A DNA stretch of 64,000 bases, filler included, from Dirinaria sp. TL-2023a (GCA_051941275.1; 14 parts of 14 records of this genome joined end to end with filler, not necessarily neighbours in it), one strand, 5' to 3'; shown: positions 5,296 to 31,000, counted from the whole stretch's first letter. Notes: a model not told the origin generated them from the letters alone. Translations and numbers: made by a program.

Positions 5296-5820
5296 GTGGA
5301 AGTTTCTGTCTGTTATTCATGGGGACGTTATTGTGTTGGAGTTGAATCTGTAAGATAGGGGGGAGAGGGTTGTTAGGGCATCATGAGGAGCATCAGCTTT
5401 GAGGAAAAACAGATAAGGTAGTACCGTGAACCGTCTCGGCGATGCTCGTAGTAGGGCAACCCCGAGATAAAAGTTAGCCATACAAGTGTGACTCTGCTAC
5501 CCTAAGCCGAGTATGCCTCAACACTATATTAATTTTTGATTTTCATCATTTCTATACTCTATAATGAAGGACCCTGACTGACTGACTTATTGGCTACTGT
5601 ATCTGAGCGTGCCGCTGGGTAAGTAATATACGGAGACACCTCGGTACCTCGGTACTTCCCGGGCCTTTAATCAGCCTGTTCTATAGGGCTTAGCGTGACA
5701 TTGACGGGTCAGAACCGAAGTTTTTGTAGATTCGCTAGGAAGAAAATAAATTTGTGTGCCTCACAGACATCGACACCCTCGATACCACTGCATCTTTTGC
5801 ATTGCAGCAAACAAGCCAAA

Positions 5821-8006
5821 ATGGCGGATGAAGTATACGAAGGAGCTATCGGGATAGATCTTGGTACGGAATTCCTCAGGACCTATGAATGATCAACCTA
5901 CCACTAACATTCTCTAGGAACCACATATTCTTGCGTTGCCAACTATGAAGGCGCCAATGTCGAGATCAGTTCGTGCCCTTACGGATCTATCTTTCCAGAC
6001 AATAGCAAAGTATACTGAGCTAACATTGACTTTTGCAGTCGCCAATGAGCAAGGGAGCTTTACGACGCCCTCCTTCGTCTCCTTTACCGACGAAGAGAGG
6101 CTGATTGGCGAGTCTGCAAAGAATCAGGCTGCTATGAACCCTGCGAACACCATCTTCGATATCAAGTATGTTTGCCACTACAACCCGGTAAATCTTATAC
6201 CCTTGCTAAGGTCTCTCCAGGCGTCTCATTGGACGTCGATTTGATGACCCTACCGTCAAGAAAGATATCGAGTCATGGCCATTCAAGGTGGTTGATCAGG
6301 GTGGAAATCCAATGGTACAGGTGGAGTACCTAAAAGAGACAAAGACGTTCTCCCCACAGGAAATTTCATCCATGGTACTCATGAAGGTGCGCACGAGGAT
6401 TTTAGCGAAGCTTGCCATTTTCTCCTGACATGAGATAGATGAAAGAGGTTGCAGAAACCAAATTGGCCAAGAAGGTCAAGAAGGCCGTCATCACTGTTCC
6501 TGCCTATTTCAATGACAATCAGCGCCAAGCGACGAAAGATGCTGGAGCCATTGCGGATCTCCAGGTGTTGCGTATCATCAACGAGCCTACCGCTGCCGCA
6601 ATTGCTTACGGTCTCGGCTCCGGAAAATCCGAAAAGGAGAGAAACGTTTTGATCTATGATCTCGGTGGTGGTACATTTGATGTCTCGTTGCTGCACATCC
6701 AGGGCGGCGTCTTCACTGTCAAGGCTACAGCTGGTGATACCCATCTTGGTGGTCAGGACTTCGACACCAACCTTCTGGATCACTTCAAGAAAGAGTTCCA
6801 ACGCAAGACGAAGAAAGATCTCTCAGGCGATTCCCGGGCGCTGCGGAGGTTAAGGACGGCCTGCGAGCGTGCCAAGCGTACGCTATCCAATGCTACTCAG
6901 ACTACGGTAGAGATCGATTCTCTTTTCGAGGGCGAGGATTTCAATGCACAAATCACCCGTGCTCGTTTCGAAGACCTGAACCTTAAGGCTTTTAGTGGTA
7001 CTCTTGACCCGGTGCAGCAGGTACTTAAAGACGCTTCACTTGAGAAAGGGAAAGTTGACGAGATTGTCCTCGTCGGCGGTTCTACCCGCATTCCGAAGAT
7101 TCAAAAACTGCTAAGTGACTTCTTCGATGGGAAGAAGTTGGAGAAGAGCATCAATCCTGACGAAGCCGTTGCCTATGGCGCCGCAGTGCAAGCGGGTATC
7201 CTGTCAGGCAAAGCTGCTTCAGCCGATACTTCCGACCTCCTTCTTCTTGACGTTGTACCCCTATCACTTGGCGTTGCCATGGAAGGCAACATCTTTGCTC
7301 CAGTCGTTTCCCGGGGACAAACGGTCCCAACTTTGAAAAAAAGGCATGCCTTCATTCACTTGCCTTGTTCCCTCCTCCAAGAGATACTAATATGTTCGAC
7401 AGAACTTTCACCACCGTGGCAGACAACCAGCAAACGGTGCAATTTCCAGTATTCCAGGGTGAGCGTGTCAACTGCGAGGATAACACATCGCTTGGAGAGT
7501 TCACCCTCGCACCTATCCCACCTATGAAAGCAGGTGATGCAGTGCTCGAAGTTGTGTTCGAGGTCGACGTCAATGGCATCTTAAAGGTCACTGCTACCGA
7601 AAAGACTTCTGGGCGAAGCGCCAACATCACAATCTCCAATTCTGTAGGCAAGCTGTCCTCAACGGAGATTGAGAGCATGATCAATGGTGAGCAGAGATGA
7701 TTGGCACACCAAGGATATATTGCTTACAAAAGGTCAGATGCCGCAAAGTTCAAAAACAGCGATGATGCTTTCAGCAAGAAGTTCGAGGCTAGGCAACAAC
7801 TCGAATCATACATTTCACGCGTCGAGGAGATCGTCTCCGACCCAACCATGTCACTGAAACTAAAGCGTGGCACTAAAGACAAGATCGAAACCGCACTGAG
7901 CGACGCAATGGCTCAATTGGAGATCGAGGACTCGGCGTCGGACGACCTGAAGAAGAAAGAGCTGGCACTGAAGCGACTTGTCACGAAAGCTATGTCGACA
8001 CGGTAG
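5821..8006 (+). CDS. SSB1: Ribosome-associated Hsp70 chaperone SSB
   Basis: [17 protein letters not shown] and [12 protein letters not shown]sp70 signatures. The C-terminus is [11 protein letters not shown] with no EEVD, typical of Ssb. Introns at about 5864-5917, 5969-6038, 6166-6220, 6387-6438, 7344-7402 (GC-AG) and 7687-7737. Confidence 0.97.
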
Positions 8007-9256: not shown

Positions 9257-10300
9257 AGCACCACCACCACCAGCATTACTCTGCAATGCATTTCCATTCC
9301 CACCACCGCCTTGGATTTCAGCCCCCCTCAACCCCTCCCGCTGCCTCGTCGTCTGGCTCAGCCGCCCGCTTTCGATCTCCTCTTTCCCCGCCCGCGCGAC
9401 TTGCTCGTGCGCGGCAACGGCGTCGGGCGGCGCTTTGAAGCGTCGATCCACGGCGCTGTTGACGGTGCCGCGGAGGGTTTCGCCTGCGCCCTATATCGTT
9501 CCCAAACCCACATGGAAGATGTTAATGCTGATTCTAGATTCTAGGTGCGAAGTATAGGTTGGGGGGGGAGAATGCATATATGGATAGAAGAAGAAAGGGA
9601 AAAGACGAACGTGTAATCCCACGGCCGCGGTCTTGAGCCCTTGTAATGTCCCTCCTCCTCCTGATCCTCTTCCTCTGCCTGATTCTGTGGCGATCGTGTT
9701 TTGCCCCTGTGGCGGCGGGGTTCGGCTCGGGTAGGAGAAATTGGCGCCGCCCGTGGGGCTCCGTGGTGGTGGAGGGTTGGGGCTTCGCTCGCGCATGCTG
9801 CTTTTTTGGGGCACCTGCGGCGGCGGCGGTGCTGCTGGATTGTGGTTATTCGTGAATCCCTCGTCACCCCGGCCGTAGCTTGTCCTGTCTGCTTGTGCTG
9901 CTCCTCCTGTATGCGCACCCGCTCCACCTCCATCATTGGTAGTCGATGACGTAGTGCCAGGGTCGTGGCGCGTTTCGCTCTGCTGGGTGCCCCCGCCGGC
10001 GGTGGTTGTTGTTGTGGTGGTAGTAGTGGTCGTCGTCGTCACGACTTGGCCTTGGTCGTTGCGGTAGGTATGTTCTTGTACGCCTGGGGCGATGTTGCGG
10101 CTCGTCTCGCTGCCCGTGAGGCTCGGGGCGAGGTTAGTGCTGGCAGTGGTGCTCGAGGGTTGCTCGCTGCTGTAGGTGCTGTCGTGGGTGGAATTGCGGG
10201 GGGAATCGTTCGATGGGTCTGTTGTGGAGGGGGAGTTCTTGGAGTGGAGGCCTGGCAGGCGCCATTTGGATTTCTTCTCTTTGCCCGGTGAGGAGGGCAT
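9257..10300 (-). CDS. Conserved fungal hypothetical, low-complexity Thr/Gly/Pro-rich protein (3' truncated)
   Basis: Exon 1 ends LQGLKTAAVGLH. After an intron (~9611-9491) it continues GAGETLRGTVNSAVDRRF...EEIESGRL. Contains a poly-Thr tract. Confidence 0.7.
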
Positions 10301-11704
10301 TGTTTTCTTTGCTTTTCTTTTCTCCTTTTTCTCTTTCTTTCTCTCTCTTCTGAGGTCGGAGATTGTTGGAGAAGTTAATAGTATGAGGTGTAGAAGGAGA
10401 GATCGAGGTAGGCAGGTGGCAGCTCAAAACAGGCTTTCAAGACAATTGGGGGAGTGTTAGTGGAAGTCTGGATTTCAAGGTTGGATCGTCAATTCGCAGG
10501 GTGACGTCACTGGGCTTGGAGTAGGAATAGGAGCAGGTAAAGTAAGTGCCAGTAAGATCTTATATTACTGTCCATATATGTACGTATCTAGAGAAGGATC
10601 TTCAGGTACTTCATGAGAGACATCATAACCACGCCCATTAGGTTGATTCCCAGCTTCAGCTATACAGCTACGGATTTCATACAAAACATTCCCAGATGCC
10701 ATGTTACGCATGTATGGGATATGCCAAAATGTCTACGAATGCACATGCGGCAACAGCGCTGATGCGCACGAACAATAACTGTTCTCTATATTATAACGAT
10801 GAAGAGCGGGAGATTATCTGCAATACGAAGTAGAGCTAAGCACAAAGGATATCTCGCTCGATCTCGGCTTGTCGCCTGAGCTGCCATGATCGAGAAGACT
10901 TTCTCGCCAGCCTCTGGCTCTGCCTTGCTTGATTATTGTCGGCATGATCCCAATCAGGCTGAGTCCACAATCCTTGGTAGCTGGATCCTCTCTCTCTCTC
11001 CTGCTCGATTCATCGATTCACGAATTCACGGATTCACGGCTGTTATGGCGGTATTTCGCGGCCGGCAGTGCAATGCTTTGATCATGAAGGCTCTCAACCC
11101 AGAGCCGGAAAACTTGTCACCAGACCGTTCTTATACTACCGTGCCTTCGAAGTACCAAGTTTCAGCCGCAGCCACAGGTATCAATCCATTACCTCACGTC
11201 TGCTATACTTAGACAAGCCACGCGGTACCTAGTGTTGAGACATATCCACTTCGGGCATTACCTTGCCGCAGATATAGCCGCACGAAATGGGACCTTGCTT
11301 TCACTCTATGCCAGCCGTCCACTCCGAAACGACCCTGATTTTAGAGTCTGGAGAAGCAATCCCCAATGGTTCCCCACACTGGGATCTCCGCTACGAAATC
11401 CTATCACACCCACTCCCTGCCGCCCTTCCCCCTGATGTCTTCGCAGTGGTGACGGAGAAGGCAGAAGATCGATGAACGAGTGACCTATCGTTCACCGTCC
11501 CGAAGAGCTCCCTGTCTGCTGATGCAACTAAAGCTATGGATCTCGGCTGCGCCTCGCGTCCCGCTGGGCCTTCCTCATGCCGGTAGCACATTCAACGATC
11601 TTTCAATAAAATAAAATGCATGTACTCGGGTACCTCTTGAAATTCATCCTGGACCGATAGGGAAGCAGCAGCCCTCTGCTGCTTCTCATTTTTCAACAGA
11701 GACC

Positions 11705-16279: not shown

Positions 16280-17027
16280 GGGACTGGGTGGTACGACAGA
16301 GAATAAGGGGAGGAGAGGGGGACAATGATGGAGAGAGTCGCTTAGAAAGAAAGCAAGAAGGTATCTGCATCGATGTAGCATTGGAGGCCTACAAAATTCA
16401 ATCTGCCGACGGTGACAATGCCATCAATCTACGTTGTCCCCTTCCGCATTTACATCGAGAGCTCCACTCTGTCGTCATCGTCTTCTTTGTCTCTCTTGGT
16501 CTAGTTCAGTACGATCAAAACCTCTCCTCTCTTCTCTCTCTCACACACATACACATAAAATCAGCAATCGTACTCGGCGCATTGATATCATCTGGGAGAG
16601 ACTGCACAAATCGAACTTAGAATCAGATCAAGTCGGGAGCGAAGAGAAAGACATGACTACCTTAATTTATCGATACTAAGCCGCACTAGGATGCTTCGCT
16701 AAGCTCTAGTCGCACTAGCGTTTTTCATCGTCGCTCGCTACTTTTCATCGTGACAGCGTTAAGATTACCCTCGTACGTTTGCTTTGAGGTAAGATACCTT
16801 GGTACTCTGTACAAAAATCAATTCCACGTACCCTAGGTCCAATAATTGATAAACTACAATCATCTACCTACATGTACTTTTATTTTGTTAAAGCTGTGCT
16901 GACGACGCCTTTCTGGCAAATTATTTGACAAAAGTACGCAATCTGCACTCATTACCGTTGCATTTCCATTTGATCCTTCTGCATACTTGGTCATTTCACG
17001 AATCTTGTGCATCACAGATACGTTGCG

Positions 17028-18346
17028 ATGTCTGTAGGAGCTCACAAGCCTGAGGGTGATTTCCACGGAGATTACGGCAAGCTGTCTATCATTGAATATA
17101 TTTATCTGGCCTGCAAACTGTTATGGATACTTGGTATGCACTTCTCGTACTATGCAAATTTTCCAATTTTACATGATAACCTCTCCCCCAAGTCTTCGAG
17201 CTACCGAGATTCCTTCTAAGCTACCCAACGTTTCCTTCCTACCCCTTGCAACCCTCATTTTCGACGACCCTCAAAAACTTTGCTATTAGAACGTACGTCA
17301 GCTGATTTCTACTTGCTATCTCCTTGAGGCTACGCCTCGCCTCTGACTCACATTATCACAGAACGAACAGGCTCCTCACCTACCGTCAGATCCGCGTCCT
17401 CATCCGTCCCTCATCCTCTATCATCCTCTCTTCCCGCCGCTACAGCCCTACTAGCCAGAATCTCTACAGTCGCATCTCTTGCTCTAGGTTCACCGGCTAT
17501 TGGGTGATCCAATCTTCCTTCACTAATCCCCAACCGCCGCGGCATTCGGATGTCACGATCTGTTTTCTCCATGGAGGGGGGTATTTTGCCTCGCAACCAG
17601 ACACCTACTTGGTGTTTCTACTCCGCCTAGCAGAAGCAATCTTGGAGCAGGATATCAGAGTGTCCATTTTCGCATTGGATTACCACCTCGCGCCTGAGTT
17701 TACTTACCCTACACAATTAGAGGAAACGGTAGCTGCTTATGAGTATCTCCTCCATGAAATGGCCATCCCCCCCGAAAAGATCGTGATCGCAGGTGATTCT
17801 GCGGGAGGGCATTTGGCGCTATCGATGCTCGTGAGTCTCCATCAACGTGCTTCGTTGCCAAAGCCAGGAGGGGCGATGCTGTTCTCGCCATGGTTGTCGC
17901 TGCATCATACACCTGGCACGAATGCAGATGTGGACGTCCTCTCCGCTTCTTTCCTGAGAGCTACAGGACAACGCTTCCTCGGCCCCGCTCGCGCAGGTAG
18001 GGAGGAAACAATGGTAAATCCGTTGCTGGAATTCCTCAATCCGCGCCCAGAGACAGACTGGGATGCTGTACTTCCGTCATGGCTGAGGGTGTCGGGAGGC
18101 ACGAATGAGATCATGTTTGATGATCTCGTGACGTGGACGCAGGCGCTTCAAACAAGGCTGGGGAGGGAGAGGGTGAGCTGCACGTGGGGTGAGGGAGAAG
18201 TACATGACTGGCAGTGGTTGGAGACGATGGATGAGGGGTCGAAGAAGAACTTTCTTCAGAAGGAAGGGAAGTGTGAAGACTTTGCGGCAGTGGCTCGGAT
18301 TGGGATGATTGTTGGGGAGAAAATGAGAGGGAAGGTGCACGTATGA
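17028..18346 (+). CDS. Alpha/beta hydrolase (hormone-sensitive lipase / Say1-like esterase)
   Basis: HGGGY oxyanion motif, DYHLAPE, GDSAGG nucleophile elbow and C-terminal HDW. The 5' exons are interrupted by introns and their boundaries are approximate. Confidence 0.88.
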
Positions 18347-18806
18347 ATTTTCTGGCTACAGAGTCGATTGTGCATCCTCGGGATNNNNNNNNNNNNNNNN
18401 NNNNNNNNNNNNNNNNNNNNNNNNNNNNTTAATTAATTAANNNNNNNNNNNNNNNNNNNNNNNNNNNNNNNNNNNNNNNNNNNNTGTGAAGAGAAGAAGA
18501 TTAGATAGATAGATACCACACCACCAAAATACAGTTACACGCTTTGTCCGGGGGGAAAAAAAAGAAAAGGCAGATGTATTGACTTTTGAATCCGTTTCTT
18601 ATGATTTTTTTTCAACCTCTCTATCTGGCATCTTGTTTGGTAGGAAAAAACCCCCCATTTTCTACCAATGGACGAACCACGCGCTATTGTGCAACACGAC
18701 AAAACAAAAAAAAAAAACCACGCATCCCGCCAGGAAAAAAAAAATTCCCTGGTTCGATTTGGCTTGAAATCAAAATACAAGATCGCGAGGGGGCTGGGCG
18801 CAATAG

Positions 18807-20239
18807 CTAATAGTAATAATTCTCGTCCGGGATCCTTCCCCGCATCCACGCCGGTTCGCTGCCTCGAACGTAGATATCCTCGTACAAGATCTGCGGCGTC
18901 GTCTCCGGCACGGGCATATTCTCGGCCTCGCCGACCTCGCGATCGACGTAGCTCCTGGCGTCTTTGTCGATGCCCTTCAACTCTTCCTCCGTGGTCACCT
19001 CCCAATCCAACAGCTTCTGCTTCAGGCCGGCGATGGGATCGTTCGTGCTCCTCATGCGCTGGATCTCTTCCCGGGTGCGGTACGTCGTGCCCGGATCGGA
19101 CATGGAGTGCCCGCCGTAGCGGTAGGTGACATATTCGAACACGAGGGGGCCGTTGCCGGCCACGGTGTGTTGCTTGCCGTATTCGACGGCCGCTTTCACC
19201 GCGAGCACGTCCATGCCGTTGACTTTGAGGCCGGGGATGTACTGCCCGCGCTTGTAGTATTCCGTCAAGGCGGCGGCACGATTGGCTGCTGTGCCCATAC
19301 CATATTTGTTATCTGGAATCGAACGGTCAGCTCTCCGATGTGCAGACACGGGACGGCGCAAGGTGATAAGGCGGTTCGAACAGATGGGGTTCACATACTT
19401 TCACATCCGAACAGAATCGGCAAATTCCAGAGCTTGGCCATGTTGAAGGCTTCGAACACCTGGCCTTGGTTGCTAGCCCCGTCTCCGTAAAGGCAAATTG
19501 TTGTGTTCTGCTTGTCTGTATACTGGTTTGCGAATGCGATACCCGCACCCACGGGAACTTGAGCGCCGACAATCCCATTGCCTCCGTAGAAGCCTTTGGC
19601 GAACATGTGCATGGAACCTCCTTTGCCGTAAGCAATACCTTCTCGGCGACCAAGAAGTTCGCCGATAATCGACTTGACGGTTCCCCCACGCATGAGAGCG
19701 AAGCCATGGCAGCGGTAGGCGGTGATTACATGGTCCTCTTTGGTAATGGCGTGTTCAATGCCTGCAGCGACGGCTTCCTGGCCCGTGGACAGATGGCAAA
19801 ACCCTCGGATCTTCTTTTCTTTGTAGAGTCGGTCTGCAGCCATTTCCATTCGCCTGAAGGTAACAGTCAATTCTGCTCTTGGCGTTGCTATGAACCATGT
19901 CGAGCGTACCGTATTGAGACCATGTCATAGTACATCTGCTTGAGCTCGGCTTTGGTCGTTTTGAGAGTATATGGGGGCGGGTCGAGTTCGTAGGTTTCGA
20001 AGCTCTCATCGGAGAGCCTCACCTCAAAGGGCTTGTCATCTTCCTTCTCAATCGTTAGCATGGTCGTTGACAAGTCATTGCTTTCAACCTACCGACGGAA
20101 CGTGCTCCTTGTCGGCGTGAGATGATGCTGCATCGGTGGTGACAGTCCGTACAGCTGGTTTAGGGCAGGGCCTGAGTGCCGCCGGCCTGAGCGGCGCTAT
20201 GCACCGTGTTCTCAGAACTGGACGCAGCATGGTGCTCAT
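18807..20239 (-). CDS. PDA1: Pyruvate dehydrogenase E1 alpha subunit, mitochondrial
   Basis: [23 protein letters not shown] (TPP-binding) and [15 protein letters not shown] motifs, three introns and a mitochondrial presequence. Start is 20239 or 20230. Confidence 0.97.
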
Positions 20240-20886: not shown

Positions 20887-23120
20887 AAGCCGGGATTTGG
20901 GAGGTACCGGAAAGTTGAATGCTCGGTGTGTCTGACGTGTACCTCGTACCAGCCAGGCTGATGACAGTCGGATATGTGGTGCTCAAATCCTGAGAAAGTT
21001 CGATTAGTAAGGCACTAGTCATCCTGTACGCCTTCAAAAGTTTAACGACTCATCGCGCATAGCCAGATACAGTGCGCGCCGCCATAAATACACCATAATA
21101 ACAGATTCATCATGCCGTAGTACGAAAGTCGACGATGCATAGACGAAGGCCCTGCCACCTATATATACAAGACGGAACTAGGCCAAAGAAAATAGTGAGT
21201 AGATCTCCCAAGGCTTAGGGTAGAGTTCACATTAGCCACTCGCGATCCGTCTGTCTTCCTGATCCCTCCCGTTCCTTAGAGCGCCATCGTTCGGAAGGAA
21301 GCTATATACAGTACATTTTCACCAAGCTTAGGATCTGCAGTGCGCGGGATTATCAGCCGGACTAAACCATGTCAATGGTAGGCAATAAACCTTCTTGGTA
21401 AACGCTCAGTGAGTAGGATGCAGGAGTATCAAAAGAGCCCGACTCAGAACCGTCGAGGAGTATCATAGAGCTGTCAAACAAACACACCGCGTGGGGTGTT
21501 ATGTGGCGTTTGCATGCCGCAACGAAATTGATCGCTCCTTTAATACCTTAAGACAATATCAGCGAACGCTGTTGCGTCTGATTGATCACATTGCTTTCGT
21601 AAAGGAAACTCGTCGTTGGATCGCTTCAACCTATCAGTGTTATCTAAATTTTCTTACGCATGCGGGGCTACAATTAAGACCTTCCAAAGCCAGAACAACT
21701 TTCCCAACGCCTGGTAAGTATCTCTAACGCACAGCACTCTCTCGCATGATTTGTAAGATGACCCCAGAACAACATGCTATGCCATGTCGGATCGCAAGTT
21801 GCAAGCAGCTTTAACAAGGGGCGGCACGTTGTTTAACGTTTGACTTCATGCAACTACGCAATGGCCGTCTGGCGCCAACGCATTGAGCTTGGGAAACCGT
21901 TCTTCCTTCGAGCGTGGACTGATCGACTGCGTGGCTCGGTTGCTAAAGACCTATGATATGAGGTGGGGACAAGCAATACCGACTTGCCAGGTATTCTGCA
22001 CTGCGCTTCGGGTATAGAGGAGCCTGCATGACTAGCTCTCTTATATCAGTGCAACATAATTGTACTCCGACCGGGGAAAAATGTCGTCGGCAAAGCAAGT
22101 TTGACAGCTGTGAGATCCCGTGCTTCGGTATCCTGCATATGTGACAGGGTTCCGAAGACATCAAGACAAGATTTCATTTTTTTGAATTCGAACCCAAAAG
22201 TGGCTGCGACAGATTTTATGTTCCCTAGAGGAGAACTACCATCTCGGCTTTGAACTCTGCTCCAATGCGTGCATTGAATGCCATCCAATAATTATCCAGT
22301 CGCGCACCGTGTCCACATAGAATGTGGTACATGGAGGTTTCAGAAGCCGTATATTGGGCTTGGTGTAAAGCCATGCTGGAATTAGACCCGGCTGCGATCT
22401 GTAGAGGATCATAGAAAGCGGTCGGACGAGATTCACCTGATGAAGGAATCATGACTGGTGTTTCTCTGTCAGATATCGAACATGACGCAAACGAATACAT
22501 CAGCCCCGTCACACCAAAATGAAGAGTGGCTTTAGAGGGCTTTGGAGGGGCGGGGGGACGGATAGTTGCAGGCTTGGATGTCCCAGCACCACGGTCGTGT
22601 GCAAACTAGGACCAACGACGAGCGAGGCCAAGCGCGCCGCTGTCATCAGAGTTTGGTTAGCTGGGAATCCCGACGTTAGGGTTACGCTCCGTCACCTTGG
22701 CACATGACAAGCGTAGGAAAGGCTAAAGGGCAGGTTGCTGAAAGATCAGAGCGCCGGTGGCCCGGTGATCCTTTACCCGTCTAGGCGAGCCGACCCCAGA
22801 CAAGAGGCTTAGAGGCTTCTGGCGAAAACGATGGCTGGCTGGAGGGAGTGGGCCATTCCGGGTTTTGGATGTGAGAGGTGGCATGCAGGATGATAAAAGC
22901 GACCCGCGCTACTCTTGGTTCAGCTTGACAGCGGGGTCGAGCATTACTTCAGCCTCGTCCAACGCTCGCGACTTTGTTGGGGNNNNNNNNNNNNNNNNNN
23001 NNNNNNNNNNNNNNNNNNNNNNNNNNTTAATTAATTAANNNNNNNNNNNNNNNNNNNNNNNNNNNNNNNNNNNNNNNNNNNNAAGGTTTTCACTATTTGT
23101 TGCTGACTAGATATTGACAG

Positions 23121-23709
23121 AATCCGACTATATGGGTGCCGCAGGCAAATCATCCATGACTCTTAAGAGGAAATTTCAATCCCAGAGCAGCTATGGTCCG
23201 GTTTTTACCAAGGTTCGAATCATAATCGTGGTCGCCTGTTACGAAAGTAGCTACATCGCGCTGCCCCTATACGTATGTATCTGCTGACAATATCCTTCCA
23301 AGCACTTACCGACTCGAAAAGTTTATAATCTCCATTTCGGGTTTGAGCATAAATTTGGATTTAGAATCTCATTTCGCAAAAATGCATGCTAATTCTTCTA
23401 TCTTGATAGACACATAATGGAAACGGACTATCCAACAAGAGCCCCAGCCAGAGACATGAGTACGTCAGCGTACGTGATCATCGACTAGAAGGACCATTTA
23501 CCGCTCAGTCTGATCAAGGGGCTTTGCGAACAGAGTTTCTCAACGACGGTATCTTTATAATCGATCCTGTTTCGACCGTGCATCTCACATATCACCACTC
23601 TCGCAGCTACAACCTTCCCGTCGTCCACCAAGGGCATCTCACAGCGCAGTCCACAGATCGTCTGATAAAGCTATATAATGACTTCGCGCCACAGCAGCCT
23701 CCCCAATAA
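23121..23709 (+). CDS. DUF6590-like / PemK-MazF-fold protein, paralog A (5' truncated by contig edge)
   Basis: Exons 23121-23272 and 23410-23709 (intron GTATGT...GCTAAT...TAG) splice to ...YGPVFTKVRIIIVVACYESSYIALPLYTHNGNGLSNK...EYVSVRDHR...DPVSTVHLTY...QGHL...STDRLIKLY. It aligns along its length with paralog B. Confidence 0.75.
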
Positions 23710-24175
23710 TCTTTTGAAGATTAACCAACCTAGAGTATATTCACTACTTACCTTCGCTACAGACATAATACAAAAATTCAATTGTGGGATGATAGAGCAT
23801 TATATTATAACTGATCGATGGAGTAGGGCACGCAATGTGAAGGTAATTTAAGCTGGTATTTACATTATCGATTCCTGACGCTAATGCTATTACTGGATCG
23901 CAATGACTAAGCAGATCTGTTTTATTATCACCTTCTTTCTATTGTACAAATTCTCATATCGTATGGGTGGCTCGTCTACAAACGAATTGGTTCAATGCGA
24001 GCGCACCGTGTTCTTCTTACTAAGTAACAACCCCAGTGAAAAGGGTTTTTACTTACGCCATTTGACCTTCTGACGGTTTTTGAGCCCGTTTCCCTTTCGC
24101 ACACATGACAATATCAATGACAGTTCTGAGGTCGTGAAAAAAAATTTTGAATAACGACTATGTAGGCGTTAATAT

Positions 24176-25702
24176 TCATCTAGTCTGCGAAATTTCCCCT
24201 GATCCTTCCTCCTCTTTTGCGTCACGAAATGTACTACAGTAGAACCGCCAGCGGTCTATCTGCAACCTATTGCTAAGTTCTTTCTCAACCATGCTGAAGG
24301 TGCTAGATATGCTGACAGACTTTTCATCCCCCCAGAGATCAATCTCCGGCTGAGCTGCGTCCTCTTCTGGCGGAGCTGTGACTTGTTCAACCCACACTGC
24401 AACATGACTGTAATCCTTCATAGCTGTTACGGCTGCCAATTTTTCAGGCTCTGAGCTACAAGCTTCCTCGTCATACTCAGCACAAGACATTATCGACATA
24501 TCGTCCTCAGCCAGAACGCCAAACTCTTTGCAGTCGTCCAGAGCTTCTTGAAACTCGAATTCGGCACTAATAAGTTTCTGAGTGAGCTCTCGATTCCGCT
24601 GAACATGCAGCTCTCTGACCTCACTCTCAGGAAAATCTACTTCGCCGTTGCGCAAAGCTTCGCGGTAGTTTTGAATCTGTTCCTCGCAAACTCGTTCTCT
24701 GTTGTCGAAATGATGCTGGAGCATTTGCAACTGTTCAACGGCAGCTTCGTACCTATCTCTCATTCCCTTATCAGTCAGAAGCCCGCACGAGTGCGGATCT
24801 TCCGGTGAAGGAGGAGTCATATCGAAAGAAGCCGATCGATATGGATCGATGAGACTGTCTTGAGCGGTTGCTCTGTCCAAAGTTTGCCCGCCCACCGATC
24901 GGACGGACGCTCTTCTTTCAACTTCCATTTCGTCTCGCAGCGTGGCGTTGTCTTCAGCCTCTGTCACCTTGTACAGTTGCTTGTCGATTAATATATTCTC
25001 TAATGTTCGTTCCAGGCGCTTGCGTGAATAATCTAGCTCGCGCTTTCGGTCTTTTAGGGTCTCTTCAAGAGTATCCCGACGCTGAAAATCTGCGTGGATC
25101 TGCGGTGTTCGGTCTTCAAACTCTTCTAGGTAGAAGTCGCGCCCTGGGCAGTCTGAGCCTTCCGTTCGTGCTTTCACAAATTCCAGGAATGATTTACCGT
25201 CTTCCGCCTTTTCCATAGCAGATTCGTAAGAGCTTTCGAGGGTTTCGAGTTCTCGGGCGCTCTTAAGCACCTCTGTGATCTGTGCTACAGTATCTTCAGT
25301 CAAAGGGAAGGATCGGCAGCTTGTATCTACACAACTGTCATGGGCAATATCGTGGCTAGCATCCAAAAGATCATTCGTCTGGACTGGATACCCTGACAAG
25401 CTACTCAAAACAGGTCTGCTTTCTGGTTCGAGACTCATCAACTGCGCATCGAGAGCGGATTGAAGAGATGGCTGAATGTAGAGCTGCTCATGGGATGGAG
25501 ACTGATCGAAATCTGATCTAAAAGAAGCTGGCAGACTTGTTTGTGCCGGCTCTATCCTGTCCTTCGAGAGCCTTTGCGGTACACCTTCGTCTTCAATAAG
25601 GCGTGCTTGCGGATTTATGCGTGCCTGCAATCTCCCACTGTTGAAGTGCGAGCCAAATTTGCGAAAGGCCTTCTCCAGGAAGTCTCGCATGCGGTGCTCC
25701 AT
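24176..25702 (-). CDS. Acidic coiled-coil protein of unknown function (508 aa)
   Basis: Uninterrupted ATG ORF, Glu/Asp-rich with heptad-like segments and a Trp-containing C-terminal motif (VAVWVEQV...IDLWG...SVSISSTFS...QIDRWR). Confidence 0.8.
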   Translation of the reverse strand: MEHRMRDFLEKAFRKFGSHFNSGRLQARINPQARLIEDEGVPQRLSKDRIEPAQTSLPASFRSDFDQSPSHEQLYIQPSLQSALDAQLMSLEPESRPVLSSLSGYPVQTNDLLDASHDIAHDSCVDTSCRSFPLTEDTVAQITEVLKSARELETLESSYESAMEKAEDGKSFLEFVKARTEGSDCPGRDFYLEEFEDRTPQIHADFQRRDTLEETLKDRKRELDYSRKRLERTLENILIDKQLYKVTEAEDNATLRDEMEVERRASVRSVGGQTLDRATAQDSLIDPYRSASFDMTPPSPEDPHSCGLLTDKGMRDRYEAAVEQLQMLQHHFDNRERVCEEQIQNYREALRNGEVDFPESEVRELHVQRNRELTQKLISAEFEFQEALDDCKEFGVLAEDDMSIMSCAEYDEEACSSEPEKLAAVTAMKDYSHVAVWVEQVTAPPEEDAAQPEIDLWGDEKSVSISSTFSMVEKELSNRLQIDRWRFYCSTFRDAKEEEGSGEISQTR

Positions 25703-26166
25703 TGATCAAGGATGGAGACGATGAAGCAGGATGATTAGCTAAACTGAATTCTGGCTTCGGGTGGTATAAAACAACTTAGGCTTGAAGTGTACGCGTATTG
25801 ACAGGTGGGCAGAGAGGAGAATATAACTCGTGGTGTGAGCTGTCTCACCTTTGTATTCAAGCTCATTGTCCAGAATTAACAAAGCATAGTGACACCTAAA
25901 ACCCACGAACAAAGAGCAAGGCTCTGTTTAGATCCAAAGATGGCTTTGATGCTGAAGGAGAATTCATTGTCTGACCTAGTAAGTGCTCTCTGTTTCGGAA
26001 TGCAATGTTCTCGAGCTGTATATATCGCCGATATATCGCTGATCTGACCCCAAGCCTATATCGATTATAAACACGCACAGGTGATCGTAAGAAAATTTGG
26101 TGTCACCACTCTAAAATTTATATCCTTCAGAATATCAACGCCAAAGCAGCAATACCTAGCTTTCGC

Positions 26167-27194
26167 ATGGCGGCTCTAAGATCTTCTCGCGATCTGCAAT
26201 TTTCGATGGCAGGTGACCGTTCTAGAGCCAACAGACCAATCCAAACGCTAAAGACACCTGAGCAGGGGCTAAAGCGTTCCACTACGAATCAAATACAAGG
26301 TGATAGCAGAGAAACCAATGAGACATGGACTACTGTACGCCGTAAAGACGCTGCGAGTAAACTTGGGAAATTCGATGTGCACGACCAAGCTCTCGGCAAT
26401 CCTGTGCCCAGCAAGGAAGTTCAAAGTCGAAAAATCCCAGACGCTGACGGTGATATTGGTGACGACAAGCGCTCAACCAGATTACCCCGGCATATGTTCA
26501 AACCAGGTTTGATTGTGAGAGCCCCCCTACATGTAAGTCTTGTTTTTTCTTCGTGTCCTTTGTAGGAGAGGCATATCTGAAAAGAGCTTTCAGGCTGCTC
26601 TCTTAAGACTGGTATACTCGCCACATAACCTACAACGCTTATTGTCAATTTAAATCATATAACGCTGACCAAAGAGCACACTAGGAGCAAGACTACGGTG
26701 GAGCCGGCGCTACAAATCCCACTATGAATACGAATATCACGGAGAGCCGCTTTGGTAGGATCCACACGAAATACAGAAAAATGATTGTAGCTGCCTGCTA
26801 TGCCGATCGTGAGTACTGTTCTAATAATTGTCTTGAAACCCTTAGCTGTTCACATCCGCTTGCTGACAACTGCAATTTCACAGATTACGTCGCCATACCC
26901 GTGTTTACACATAATGGTAACGGTCTTCGGTTCAAGCAAAATCCAAATGAGTATGTTTCCATCTTCGACCATCGGAGCACATCTCCATTCAACGCACTGT
27001 CCAATCACAAAGCCTTGCGGACGAAACATCTTGAATCGAACGTCTACCTATACGATCCTTTATCGGCGGCACATTTGACATATCCTTGCCCTCGCAAATA
27101 TACGCTCAAGGTAGTTTACGAGGGATACTTAGATCCAGACTCGGCTAGCCAACTTGTTGCCTTATGCGGTCGGATCTTCCCTCTGATGCGCTAA
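26167..27194 (+). CDS. DUF6590-like / PemK-MazF-fold protein, paralog B
   Basis: Exons 26167-26532, 26685-26808 and 26884-27194 with canonical GT-AG introns, in frame: FKPGLIVRAPLHEQDY...FGRIHTKYRKMIVAACYADHYVAIPVFTHNGNGL...DPLSAAHLTY...VVYEGYL. Confidence 0.8.
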
Positions 27195-28076
27195 CGAGCT
27201 GTATACAAACCACGACAAGGGCCTTGAGCTAGTCTCAAGGAGTTCGCTAGTAAGTCGCCCTCCGGACAAGCAGTGCTAAAGTAAGGCATATAGCAGCCCT
27301 GCCATTGTTTCCTCTAGTAGCTCTATACGGCTTTGGATGTACCAAGTAATCGGAATGGATCAGGACCAGCTAGGTAATTATTTCCGTAATTAATCCAAAA
27401 GTTTCTTTCTCAACTTGCCGATTTCCATAGAGATTATTACAGTCTGACGAACTTTTTTTGCCGCTGAACAGGTGTCGAGCTACCTCGACGAAAGATCAGT
27501 TCAAGGCTATTAGAATGCTTTCGCATTCTGTTATGAGTCAATGCCACGACATAATGATTATAGAACCAGCTNNNNNNNNNNNNNNNNNNNNNNNNNNNNN
27601 NNNNNNNNNNNNNNNTTAATTAATTAANNNNNNNNNNNNNNNNNNNNNNNNNNNNNNNNNNNNNNNNNNNNTAGCTGGGTGTCACGCCCTTACCTTACCT
27701 TTACTGAAAAAACCCCAACGCAACGCTGCTGCTTGTTCCCAACGACACAGCTTTCAGTAAATAAGGTACCTAACCCAGCCAGCCAAAAAACCATGAACCC
27801 TACTTATATATATGCTACAAGACATTGGAGCGGCGGTTTGACAATGAAAGGATCGGGGCATCGGAACTGAGAAAAAGGAAACAAGAAAAAAAGAGAAAGA
27901 AAAAAATGCTGGCGCATCGGGAATATAAGTGGAAGACGCCAATGGGTATAGATCGGATATAACGCTGCTGTAAAATAAATGGACCTTGCTGAATAGCCGG
28001 GAGGGGGGAGGTTTTTTTTTTTTCCTTCCAGGTTTTGACGCGTAGTAGTGTTACACATCGCCAACATGATTTGACT

Positions 28077-31000
28077 TTATAACGGTGCTTTGGTCTCCGG
28101 AATCTCAATGCCCTTCTCCATTTTCGGAGGGATCCCGCCGCCATATCCTTGCGGTGCTACCGCCACTTTGACACCATACGGATCCGCATTGTTTGTTGGC
28201 TGCAAGGAAGCTTTATCGGGTGGGGATTTCTGCGCGCTGGTAACAACATCCAAGGGCCCTCGTTGCTCCATGTTTGGCGGCCGACTCAGAACACTCGCTG
28301 GCTCCGTGTTCTGTTTGTCACTAGGTGTTCGTGGAGAGACACGCCCATTCTAATAAGAAAACAACATTAGAAACGCTAGCTTGATCAAAAGTTCATGCTG
28401 ATGATGATGAGGGGCTCACCTCCTTGGCGTATCTCAGACCACAGCTGTTACAGAGATCTCTGTTCCCGCTCGGTCCTCTCCTCCATTCTGGAGTGACCCT
28501 GGTGTGGCAGTTCGCGCAGTCTTTCTGCAAATGGCCTGCTCCATTCCTGCGCTTTCTTTTTTTCTTGCTTGATAAAAGACTCTGCAATTCCTCTGCCAGC
28601 AATCGATTTCGTTTCTCCATTTGACGAAGTTCGAACTGCCAGCTGGTGCTGCGAGTAGTCTTGAGTTCATCGAACACGTTCTCTTCTGAAGCTAAGGCTT
28701 CATGTTGTGTACCGATAGCAAGAGCATTCCCCCCTGCTTCGGTAATGACTTGCTCGTTGGGAGGATTCTGGTTTGAATTGGCTGATTTGGGGGTCAAGGG
28801 TCCGCCCGAGACGGCACTTGACGATGTTTCGGGACTTGCAGACTTGGCTTCCGCTTTCGCAGGTGCTCCGCCCGCAGATTGTCGGTTGGCTGTGCTAGAA
28901 TGCCGGGAAAGCTTGAGAAGCCGTGTCTGGGCAACTAAGAACGTTGGTTTTGTGCCTTCCGCCGCGTCGCCAGGATATATGGTGGTCCTGGCTTGCAAAG
29001 TCTGACCGCGCTTGTTTTGAACGTCGTGCTTGAACGTCGCTCTGACACCGGTCCTTGCGAGCTCCAGCATTTTCCCAAATTCGAGTTTCGATTCGGATCT
29101 CATCAAGGCCTGTGCGCTGGTACCTACTAGATCATCTGGTTGACGATCTAGAAGACTTCGTACGTTTGATGATACGAATAGGAACATCCCTGAAGTAGAC
29201 ATCTTCGTCCACAGCTCGCATTCTCCAATGCCGCCAACCGAATCGATGTCTTTTCGAAAGAGTGCATAGACGGGCCGCTCGCGTCCAACCATGATGATGC
29301 ACTTACGCCCTTTGCCTTGCTCTAGATGTAATGATCCGTGGCTCTCGAACCATGTGTAGCCGTTATGTTTTCGCCTGATACGAAAAACCACATTCACGGC
29401 GGAGCCCGTCGAGGTGTCTTTCAGCTCTCGAGTGACCGGGACAATGTCACTGGGATGACACACTGATGAAAGAGCGGTGCCAACAAGCTCACTAGGATCG
29501 TACTCGAGGACCTTTCGACTCGAAGGTGATAGGTACAAAAATAACCCTTTTAGAGAAAGCACGTGCACAACATCGTCAGTGTTCTCGAGAAGGACTTTGT
29601 CCCATATTCGCTTCGAAAGTTCGGATTCGCCGGTACCGATCGTGCTCAGAACTGTCGAGACTTCGTCTCTCCCAACAGTTTGACCTATGTCAGGGTTCGG
29701 CTGGTCATTGTGCTGAGGTATCTGATAATGAGGCAATGGGCCACGTTGGTAATTGATAGTGTAAGTGCCATCTGCGAACCTTTCAGATTTTGTTACAAGA
29801 CTGAGAGAGGGCAGGGTTACGACTGACCTGGATTCTTATTCGTGATCGATGCTGGCTGCTCAACAAGGTCGACTTGAAAACCGACATAGTACTTTATTTC
29901 TTCAGAATCCCAGGTGATTGGAATCATTGTGAGAAGATTCATAAACGGCTGTCCACCTTTCCGGTAGTTGATGATACTGATCTGCATCTCCTGCCGCTGG
30001 TTGATCATGTTCTTAATTCGCAGCACAGAGTTATCATCAACATATTTACGCTTTACGCCTGCCTGGATTTTGCCGTCCGGAGCCTGCAAAAATCGACAGT
30101 TTCTGCCTAGAATCTCGTGTTTAGTGTATCCTGTGAGACGCTCAAAGATGTCCGAACAATACACGATTGGTAGGTCATGCTGAGTAACGTCACAGACGGC
30201 GAATGCACAGGACATATCCACGGCCCCAATGTTGATCAAAGGCTTTGGTCTTGTGGCAACTCGCGTCAAGACACCGAGCATATCAAATCCACTTGAGGAG
30301 TAAGCATTGCGATACTGAGGTACCACGGGTTGAGGCGGTGGTTTCTGCGCACTCTCCCCTTGTGACACTGGCGGTCCGCTTGGAGCCGATATATCAAGGT
30401 TTGCGTTGGACTGCACTTGATCTGGTGGACTCAGTTCCGGAAATCTTCCCAATGAGTTCACCGGAGGTGCTTGTGGGGCGTTTTGCAACGGTATGGGTTG
30501 CTGAGGAAGGTCCTGTGGTGAGACGTTGGATTGGTGGGTTTGAACTCGATCGGACAATTGAAGGGCAGGCATCTTTTCTGTCGGATCCTGCTCAGCATGA
30601 CTTTTATTCATCCCGCCCCCCGGGTCCTCAGTTGGACCTGTTATGGGATTACACATATTCTGCTGCATCGGTGAAGAGGAGAGGTTCGGAGTGAAAGCGG
30701 CCTGTGAGTACATGTTCATTGGCGTCACGTCGCCGTTGTTTTCATGGTTCAACCCGCCGGCCGAGTAGTCCATTCCCATCAACATATTATTCGACATGTA
30801 ATCGCCATGAATGTCGAGAGGCATAGAATTCGAATGATGCAATGACGGATGGTAGGGGGAGGAGGACACCATAGGATTGTAGCCAGATCCAATACCCTGG
30901 AACTGTGTGTCTAGAGCCATTTCCCCAGCAGACTCTCGGCGCCGCGAGTTTTGGCTGTCCATCCTCCGCTGAGCAATATTTCCCGGGCGCTGCGTGAACG

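Follow-up and report, generated by a model that had tools for sequence, protein, structure and literature searches.

A fungal DUF6590 gene with a predicted MazF/PemK-type fold and a head-to-head acidic partner gene in Dirinaria

Do fungi possess a counterpart of the bacterial MazF/PemK toxins, one that is held in check by the product of a gene next door? The question is raised by a locus at positions 23083-27571 of a 64,000-nucleotide stretch of DNA (the window) from Dirinaria sp. TL-2023a (GCA_051941275.1), in which two spliced genes of the DUF6590 family, here called A and B, lie on either side of an acidic gene, here called C, an arrangement that a first-pass annotation had taken for a candidate toxin-antidote locus. 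To our knowledge, MazF/PemK toxins are treated as prokaryotic. The evidence assembled below points to a MazF-type fold for the DUF6590 domain and to a conserved pairing of DUF6590 genes with C-type genes, and it makes the toxin-antidote reading a plausible one.

The window is composed of 14 contigs of approximately 4.5 kb each, with 26 runs of 44 N flanking the spacers between them (N44-TTAATTAATTAA-N44), and genes on either side of a spacer are therefore not genomic neighbors. The locus is exactly one of these contigs, of 4,489 bp, so that genomic context beyond these 4,489 bp is absent. The gene order on the contig is A (+), C (-), B (+), with A cut by the contig start, and the individual features are as follows.

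23122..23272, + strand: paralog A, first exon on the contig, an internal exon encoding ...TKVRIIIVVACYESSYIALPLY; CTGAC branch site, CAG acceptor, GTATGT donor
23410..23709, + strand: paralog A, last exon, encoding THNGNGL...DHR...HLTY...; stop codon 23707-23709
24176..25702, - strand: gene C, an intronless open reading frame (ORF) of 508 residues, acidic, with predicted helical hairpins and disorder
25703..26166, no strand: divergent intergenic region between C and B, 464 bp, a presumed bidirectional promoter
26167..26532, + strand: paralog B, exon 1, encoding a disordered basic N-terminus and strand beta-1 (RHMFKPGLIVRAPLH)
26685..26808, + strand: paralog B, exon 2, encoding EQDYGG...TESRFGRIHTKYRKMIVAACYAD and carrying the conserved arginine R153
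26884..27194, + strand: paralog B, exon 3, encoding HYVAIPVFTHNGNGL...DHR...HLTY..., with T172, H173, D192, H193, R194 and R234; stop codon 27192-27194

Gene B, in three exons, encodes a basic protein of 266 residues (isoelectric point, pI, 9.72), and its introns, of 152 and 75 nt, have the donors GTAAGT and GTGAGT, respectively, and CTGAC branch sites. This splice model is backed by homologs that are continuous across both junctions, including an intronless copy at a related metagenomic locus (L001, see below), with which exon 1 of B is collinear. In A, the exons 23122/3-23272 and 23410-23709 are separated by an intron of 137 nt that starts with GTATGT at 23273, while the upstream acceptor (CAG at 23121, preceded by a CTGAC branch site) is found 39 nt from the contig edge. 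As the homology between A and B starts at the first on-contig codons of A, matching the start of B exon 2, and as the acceptor is so near the edge, a further upstream exon of A, which would encode strand beta-1, probably lies off the contig. The last exon of A and exon 3 of B are identical at 42 of 94 positions (45%, E=7e-26), and the spliced proteins align over approximately 144 residues; BLASTP with the two short upstream exons alone returned no match. On sequence grounds A and B are true paralogs, diverged as the first-pass annotation had described them, and the five motifs that it had listed as shared are all present in both, just as the acidic intronless gene that it had placed head-to-head with B is there, as the 508-residue ORF at 24176-25702 (-), with a pI of 4.63 and 464 bp between its start and the ATG of B. 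The positions of introns differ between the paralogs, A being split after ...PLY/THNG and B after ...ACYAD/HY, and they vary further at L001, where the copy paired with the first C gene is intronless and the second copy is in at least five pieces. The second intron of B (26809-26883), of 75 nt, is in frame and free of stops, and its retention would lengthen the protein by 25 residues, placed between core strands two and three; P0005, the best relative of B in the databases, is likewise a single ORF, seemingly through an in-frame intron at the equivalent place.

The DUF6590 label given by the same annotation holds for both genes. The ORF of B at 26685-27191 (exons 2 and 3 joined via the in-frame 75-nt intron) matches Pfam DUF6590 (PF20233) with 32.3 bits (E=1.2e-7), above the gathering cut-off of 27 bits. 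Single exons of A remain under this cut-off (12.6 bits and none), and a profile of 108 family members recognizes them with 57 bits (first on-contig exon) and 147 bits (last exon), and exon 1 of B with 23.6 bits. By its sequence B is thus a member of DUF6590, and nothing sets it apart from the family. The family itself is large: a HMMER search over 1.84 billion representative sequences retrieved 262 proteins at E<=1e-3, 137 at E<=1e-10 and four at E<=1e-30, mostly 200-400 residues long with the domain at the C-terminus, and all 108 that were aligned match DUF6590. The Atlas clusters nearest to B are in Ascomycota. A homolog search with exon 3 of B among longer proteins gave no match, and identities of 44-59% do not resolve one-to-one orthology between A or B and the two copies at L001.

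What kind of a protein is this? The structure was modeled by AlphaFold2 for P0006, a protein of 233 residues and, among properly spliced homologs, the closest to B (59% identity over 162 residues), rather than for B itself, using 108 homologs. In this model the N-terminal 70 residues are disordered, and the domain has a predicted local distance difference test score (pLDDT) mostly of 94-99, with blocks at 60 and 86 in the loop between beta1 and beta2, and a predicted template modeling score of 0.71. By extension, B and the truncated A would each start with a basic, disordered stretch of considerable length and end with a domain of approximately 155 residues predicted to fold as a beta-barrel plus a C-terminal helix. 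When the model was compared by VIA-align with 48,161 representative chains, ranks 1-11 all went to the CcdB/MazF/PemK superfamily (Z 10.6-7.7), with a Staphylococcus aureus toxin at the top (7ewi_C, Z 10.6, root-mean-square deviation 2.4 A, 102 of 111 residues aligned), with S. aureus MazF (9.9), Kid (9.6), MazF-mt1 and MazF-mt3 of Mycobacterium tuberculosis (9.6 and 9.5) and Deinococcus radiodurans MazF (9.1) among ranks 2-9, and with CcdB at rank 10 (Z 8.5). The superfamily matches span approximately 90% of each toxin. Below these ranks follow the type III toxins CptN (7.2), ToxN (5.1) and AbiQ (5.0), and unrelated barrels of the Tudor/SH3-like type appear from Z of approximately 5 downward. 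Foldseek against the whole PDB produced no match at E<=1e-3, and the rows that it listed, the MazF-RNA complexes 5HJZ and 5HK0 among them, are all of MazF-type toxins, with probabilities of 0.84-1.00 and a best E of 3.9e-3. Both comparisons bear out the fold that the first-pass annotation had proposed from motifs, and we consider it almost certain, as far as predicted structures can tell, that the DUF6590 domain has the MazF/PemK/CcdB fold. A bacterial Atlas cluster with PemK_toxin in 13% of its members was also encountered (rank 11, score 0.80), at a score too low to count.

Among the 108 homologs (P0006 numbering), the glycine G78 is conserved in 107, R118 in 107, P134 in 105, threonine or serine at 137 in all 108, H138 in 89, G142 in 108, D157 in 108, R159 in 103, K116 in 92 and R199 in 98, a pattern of invariance within the family that looks like an active site. 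B retains all 32 of the family-conserved positions, including R153 (R118 of P0006), T172 (position 137 of P0006), H173, D192, R194 and R234, and A retains 27 of the 28 that are present on the contig. In E. coli MazF, we take the catalytic residues to be R29, at the start of strand beta-2, and T52, after strand beta-3. R29 is invariant in all 15 sequences of a profile made of MazF/PemK/ChpB proteins from E. coli K-12 and plasmids. The domain-trimmed hhalign alignment with these proteins is collinear over 107 columns but insignificant (0.45%); it pairs the beta-1 glycine with the MazF G-D motif, R118 with R29 and the C-terminal helices with each other, and we tentatively map R118, and with it R153 of B, onto R29. 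The motif-by-motif mapping onto MazF that the first-pass annotation had offered survives in part. Its glycine-led strand (FKPG-IIRA versus G-D-I-W/V) agrees with the residues that come first in the structural alignments; its arginine motif (K-x-R-K-M-I-V versus R-P-x-x-V) is reproduced by the insignificant hhalign alignment only; and its threonine motif (P-x-x-T-H versus P-x-T-T) is off by one when ungapped, with hhalign putting the third strand in yet another register.

The second line of evidence is the company that these genes keep. A scan of metagenome contigs with patterns of the C family revealed three loci (L001, L002 and L003), and a DUF6590 profile run on their six-frame ORFs detected, at all three, a DUF6590 gene on the opposite strand and immediately upstream of the respective C homolog, which is the recurrent linkage that the toxin-antidote proposal had called for.

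L001, first pair: DUF6590 gene 9284-8187 (-); C homolog 9698-11092 (+)
L001, second pair: multi-exon DUF6590 gene 15792-14306 (-); second C-family gene 16368-17816 (+)
L002: DUF6590 gene 1013-3 (-), cut by the contig end, head-to-head with a C homolog
L003: DUF6590 gene 9089-8176 (-), head-to-head with a C homolog

Both L001 and L002 have a second DUF6590/C pair, also head-to-head, and the second C of L001 is 25% identical to the first, so that direct adjacency also covers two old paralogous pairs. When flipped, the double-pair arrangement of L001 and L002 has the order and orientation of B, C and A, and because of this match the sequence suggests that a C-type partner of A's own lies off our contig. 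Further instances come from contig sizes. The three nearest relatives of B (P0005, P0006 and P0007) are found on contigs exactly equal in size to those of C homologs: P0005 and P0003 are each on a contig of 21,966 bp, P0006 and P0004 are each on a contig of 23,122 bp, and the P0007 cluster has six contig sizes in common with the clusters of P0155, P0159 and P0160. Two further lineages thus appear, by equal contig size, to carry DUF6590 and C genes on common contigs. We are highly confident that B and C form a conserved, divergently transcribed two-gene module. Purifying selection acts on both genes: in the comparison of L001 with L003, the DUF6590 domain has a ratio of nonsynonymous to synonymous substitution rates (dN/dS) of 0.07 and C one of 0.28, meaning that C evolves approximately four times faster than its partner. 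The content of these loci also varies among close relatives. L001 and L003 cease to be syntenic immediately behind the first C gene (from 11338 onward in L001 and from 11341 onward in L003), and at that place L003 has neither the second DUF6590/C pair nor the ORF of 328 residues that L001 and L002 carry. A predicted complex of two copies of the L001 DUF6590 domain with the neighboring C homolog gave no verdict, with the fold of the C homolog itself uncertain, and counts neither way.

As to other genes at these loci, the 328-residue ORF lies between the two pairs of L001 (12384-13367, +) and has no Pfam match, a DUF3632 gene (38.5 bits) lies beyond the second pair (18106-19212, -), and a fragment of an NAD-dependent epimerase lies upstream (5569-6228). 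Within the window, no further DUF6590-family members are present in the other 13 contigs. The adjoining contig, unrelated to the locus, has an ORF of 480 residues (28393-29835, -) that combines PAS domains (Pfam PAS_3, 53 bits) with a GATA zinc finger at the C-terminus (Pfam GATA, 56 bits), an architecture that recalls the fungal light regulators of the White Collar type.

Gene C belongs to a family of its own. Its uninterrupted ORF has 21% aspartate plus glutamate, and the conserved start is probably Met5 (MRDFLEK, at 25690), judging from its homologs. An AlphaFold2 model built with 15 homologs is confident for a helical hairpin (residues 136-240) and for helices at 311-393, the remainder being of low confidence or disordered (mean pLDDT 55.7), and Foldseek with this model found generic coiled coils only, at E=0.064 or worse. 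The Pfam rows Phage_tail_APC (E=0.09) and Prok-TraM (E=0.089), obtained with C and with P0002, one of its homologs, are weak and were dismissed as noise. A first search yielded three homologs (P0001-P0003, at 58, 40 and 34% identity), and a profile search among 5.8 billion proteins yielded 14 clusters, all unnamed or 'hypothetical', that fall into two subfamilies. In alignment A6, the members share an N-terminal motif M-R-D/G-F-L-E/G-K (MRDFLEK...) and a C-terminal motif ...W.D..S...S....S...R..IDRWR..C (...SSTFSM...IDRWR.YC), which are kept despite overall identities of 21-34% and are candidate functional or interaction sites. Of the 30 Atlas neighbors of C, 27 are unnamed Ascomycota clusters at 0.93-0.94, a lead, and no more than that, toward a C family wider in Ascomycota than the searches show.

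How does this pair compare with known systems? With the MazF, Kid (PemK) and ChpBK toxins (PF02452), the DUF6590 domain shares the fold (Z 9.1-10.6, root-mean-square deviation 2.3-3.1 A, over 95-107 residues of chains 104-118 long), a glycine-led first strand, a near-invariant arginine at the beginning of core strand two, a conserved threonine or serine after the proline-containing third strand, a C-terminal helix, and an acidic protein encoded by a neighboring gene. In contrast, it has no detectable sequence or profile similarity to them, possesses approximately 50 extra residues in loops and a disordered N-terminal extension of 70-250 residues, and is encoded by spliced eukaryotic genes, while the C-type partner, of 450-550 residues, is unrelated to the MazE, AbrB or ribbon-helix-helix antitoxins and is divergently transcribed. 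Unlike the genes of a type II toxin-antitoxin operon such as mazEF, B and C are adjacent but divergent, and B has introns, so this is not an operon; and unlike a type II antitoxin, typically small, with an AbrB or ribbon-helix-helix DNA-binding domain and an acidic tail, C is 508 residues long, has no Pfam domain, and is acidic and largely disordered. The superfold is common also to CcdB and to the type III toxins ToxN, AbiQ and CptN, at lower Z than for MazF-type chains. Type III toxins are neutralized by RNA repeats. Among eukaryotic toxin-antidote elements, those of fission yeast (wtf, tdk1) and of Caenorhabditis elegans (sept-1/zina-1), as far as titles and the openings of abstracts describe them, resemble the DUF6590/C module in the tight linkage of two genes, one of them fast-evolving, in duplicated copies, and in a presence that varies among close relatives. 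Further such elements are Spok of Podospora and peel-1/zeel-1 of C. elegans. DUF6590 and C have no homology with any of these elements, and drive or killing by the module would be hypothetical.

The reading that we favor, to which we assign a probability of roughly 40%, is that the DUF6590 domain of B would bind and cleave RNA in the manner of MazF, that the 464-bp region between B and C would drive the expression of both, and that C, an acidic, partly disordered, coiled-coil protein, would bind B and restrain or regulate it like an antidote. The candidate catalytic set would comprise R153 (start of beta-2) and T172 (after beta-3), plus H173, D192, R194, K151 and R234, and the charges of the two proteins are opposite (pI 9.7 for B, 4.6 for C). 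RNase activity of the domain, considered separately and from the model, has in our view an even chance of being real, direct inhibition of B by C is unlikely, and any toxicity of B would be a putative property of the same kind. The boldest version, a eukaryotic counterpart of type II toxin-antitoxin systems in which a MazF-fold endoribonuclease is checked by a fast-evolving acidic coiled-coil antidote from a shared bidirectional promoter and serves in fungal genetic conflict, we consider quite improbable; the possible roles in conflict would include spore killing or meiotic drive, allorecognition, and an abortive response to mycoviruses.

A number of observations speak against RNA cleavage restrained by C, and they are best weighed along with the explanations that would accommodate them. 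The main rival is an ordinary cellular function, with DUF6590 as a factor that binds or processes RNA, or as a nuclease of the stress response, retained because it benefits the host, and with C as a co-regulated scaffold, a pathway partner or a mere neighbor, neither protein being harmful or neutralizing, and this we regard as a real possibility, if one short of even odds. It would sit well with the strong purifying selection on the DUF6590 domain (dN/dS 0.07) and with the breadth of the family (262 representative clusters, mostly of Ascomycota according to the Atlas) compared to the apparently small size of the C family (14 clusters plus P0001-P0003). It would also sit well with the features of C, which lacks those of an antitoxin: neither C nor its homologs have a Pfam domain, Pfam and fold comparison reveal in C no DNA-binding domain and no likeness to MazE, and C is approximately six times longer than typical antitoxins. 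Furthermore, 10 of the 13 DUF6590 proteins examined have no contig size in common with any C-family cluster, and the pairing may be confined to the subclade of B, unless partners elsewhere have diverged beyond recognition. L001, L002 and L003 represent one lineage (88-97% nucleotide identity), and direct adjacency is for this reason shown in two lineages only; besides, fungal genomes have many divergently oriented gene pairs, and these do not necessarily imply physical interaction. An ordinary function accounts less readily for a head-to-head pairing that is kept in two paralogous pairs whose C members are so diverged (25% identity) and across species between which C orthologs have 30-34% identity, for the complementary charges of basic B and acidic C, for the fourfold faster evolution of C, and for the absence of the second pair from the syntenic place in a close relative.

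Another set of adverse points concerns catalysis, and would be explained if the domain were a non-catalytic binder of protein or nucleic acid, built on the MazF/CcdB fold and acting in a CcdB-like or SH3/Tudor-like way, with no RNA cleavage, a possibility that we rate as slight. The superfamily includes CcdB, which is among the top matches (Z 8.5). CcdB is a gyrase poison, not an RNase. No sequence or profile method tried detects a relationship between DUF6590 and MazF or a match to the MazF catalytic motifs: Pfam PemK_toxin (PF02452) has no match in A or B, nor in any of the 108 family members at E<=10, hhalign gives a probability of 0.4% against E. coli MazF and again 0.4% against the 15-member profile (0.45% when trimmed to the domain), and a PDB sequence search with the family profile gives no matches. 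The threonine motif is spaced as P-x-x-T in DUF6590 versus P-x-T in MazF, one residue out of register, which leaves its equivalence ambiguous, and the loops carry the extra residues noted above. Yet nine RNase toxins outrank CcdB (Z 9.1-10.6 versus 8.5), and most of the invariant residues carry a charge or are polar (R118, D157, R159, K116, H138 and T/S137), which fits an active site better than a binding surface. Finally, the locus could be an artefact or dead, a repeat-derived fragment with functionless pseudogenes. The contig is only 4.5 kb long, with A truncated at its edge, and the paired DUF6590 copy of L003 (8176-9089, -) has indels of +1 and +2 compared to L001, which could be due to an assembly error, to odd splicing or to a recent pseudogene; these indels shift the beta-1 segment out of frame with the rest, each segment having a dN/dS of 0.07-0.14. 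However, the frames of B and C are intact and the splice sites canonical, B retains 32 of 32 conserved positions, and the orthologs are under purifying selection, and we consider a dead locus very improbable.

Overall, restrained RNA cleavage by B remains the reading that we prefer. We found no paper on DUF6590, PF20233 or IPR046497 and none linking DUF6590, Ascomycota or fungi with MazF-like proteins, and two broader literature searches gave, among the titles and openings of abstracts listed, nothing on eukaryotic homologs of MazF. A real and hitherto undescribed fungal gene family with a MazF fold and a conserved partner gene is, apparently, what this locus has brought to light. These results add a fold, a candidate active site and, in one subclade, a conserved partner gene to DUF6590, a widespread fungal family, and raise a directly testable question: do DUF6590 proteins cleave RNA, and does the partner inhibit them? 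If the toxin-antidote reading is true, the pair would represent a new class of eukaryotic conflict element with an effector fold of the bacterial type, and if the boldest version holds, MazF-like effectors would have a reservoir in the whole DUF6590 family throughout Ascomycota. If it is not a toxin-antidote system, DUF6590 would still gain a structural home and a list of targets for mutagenesis.

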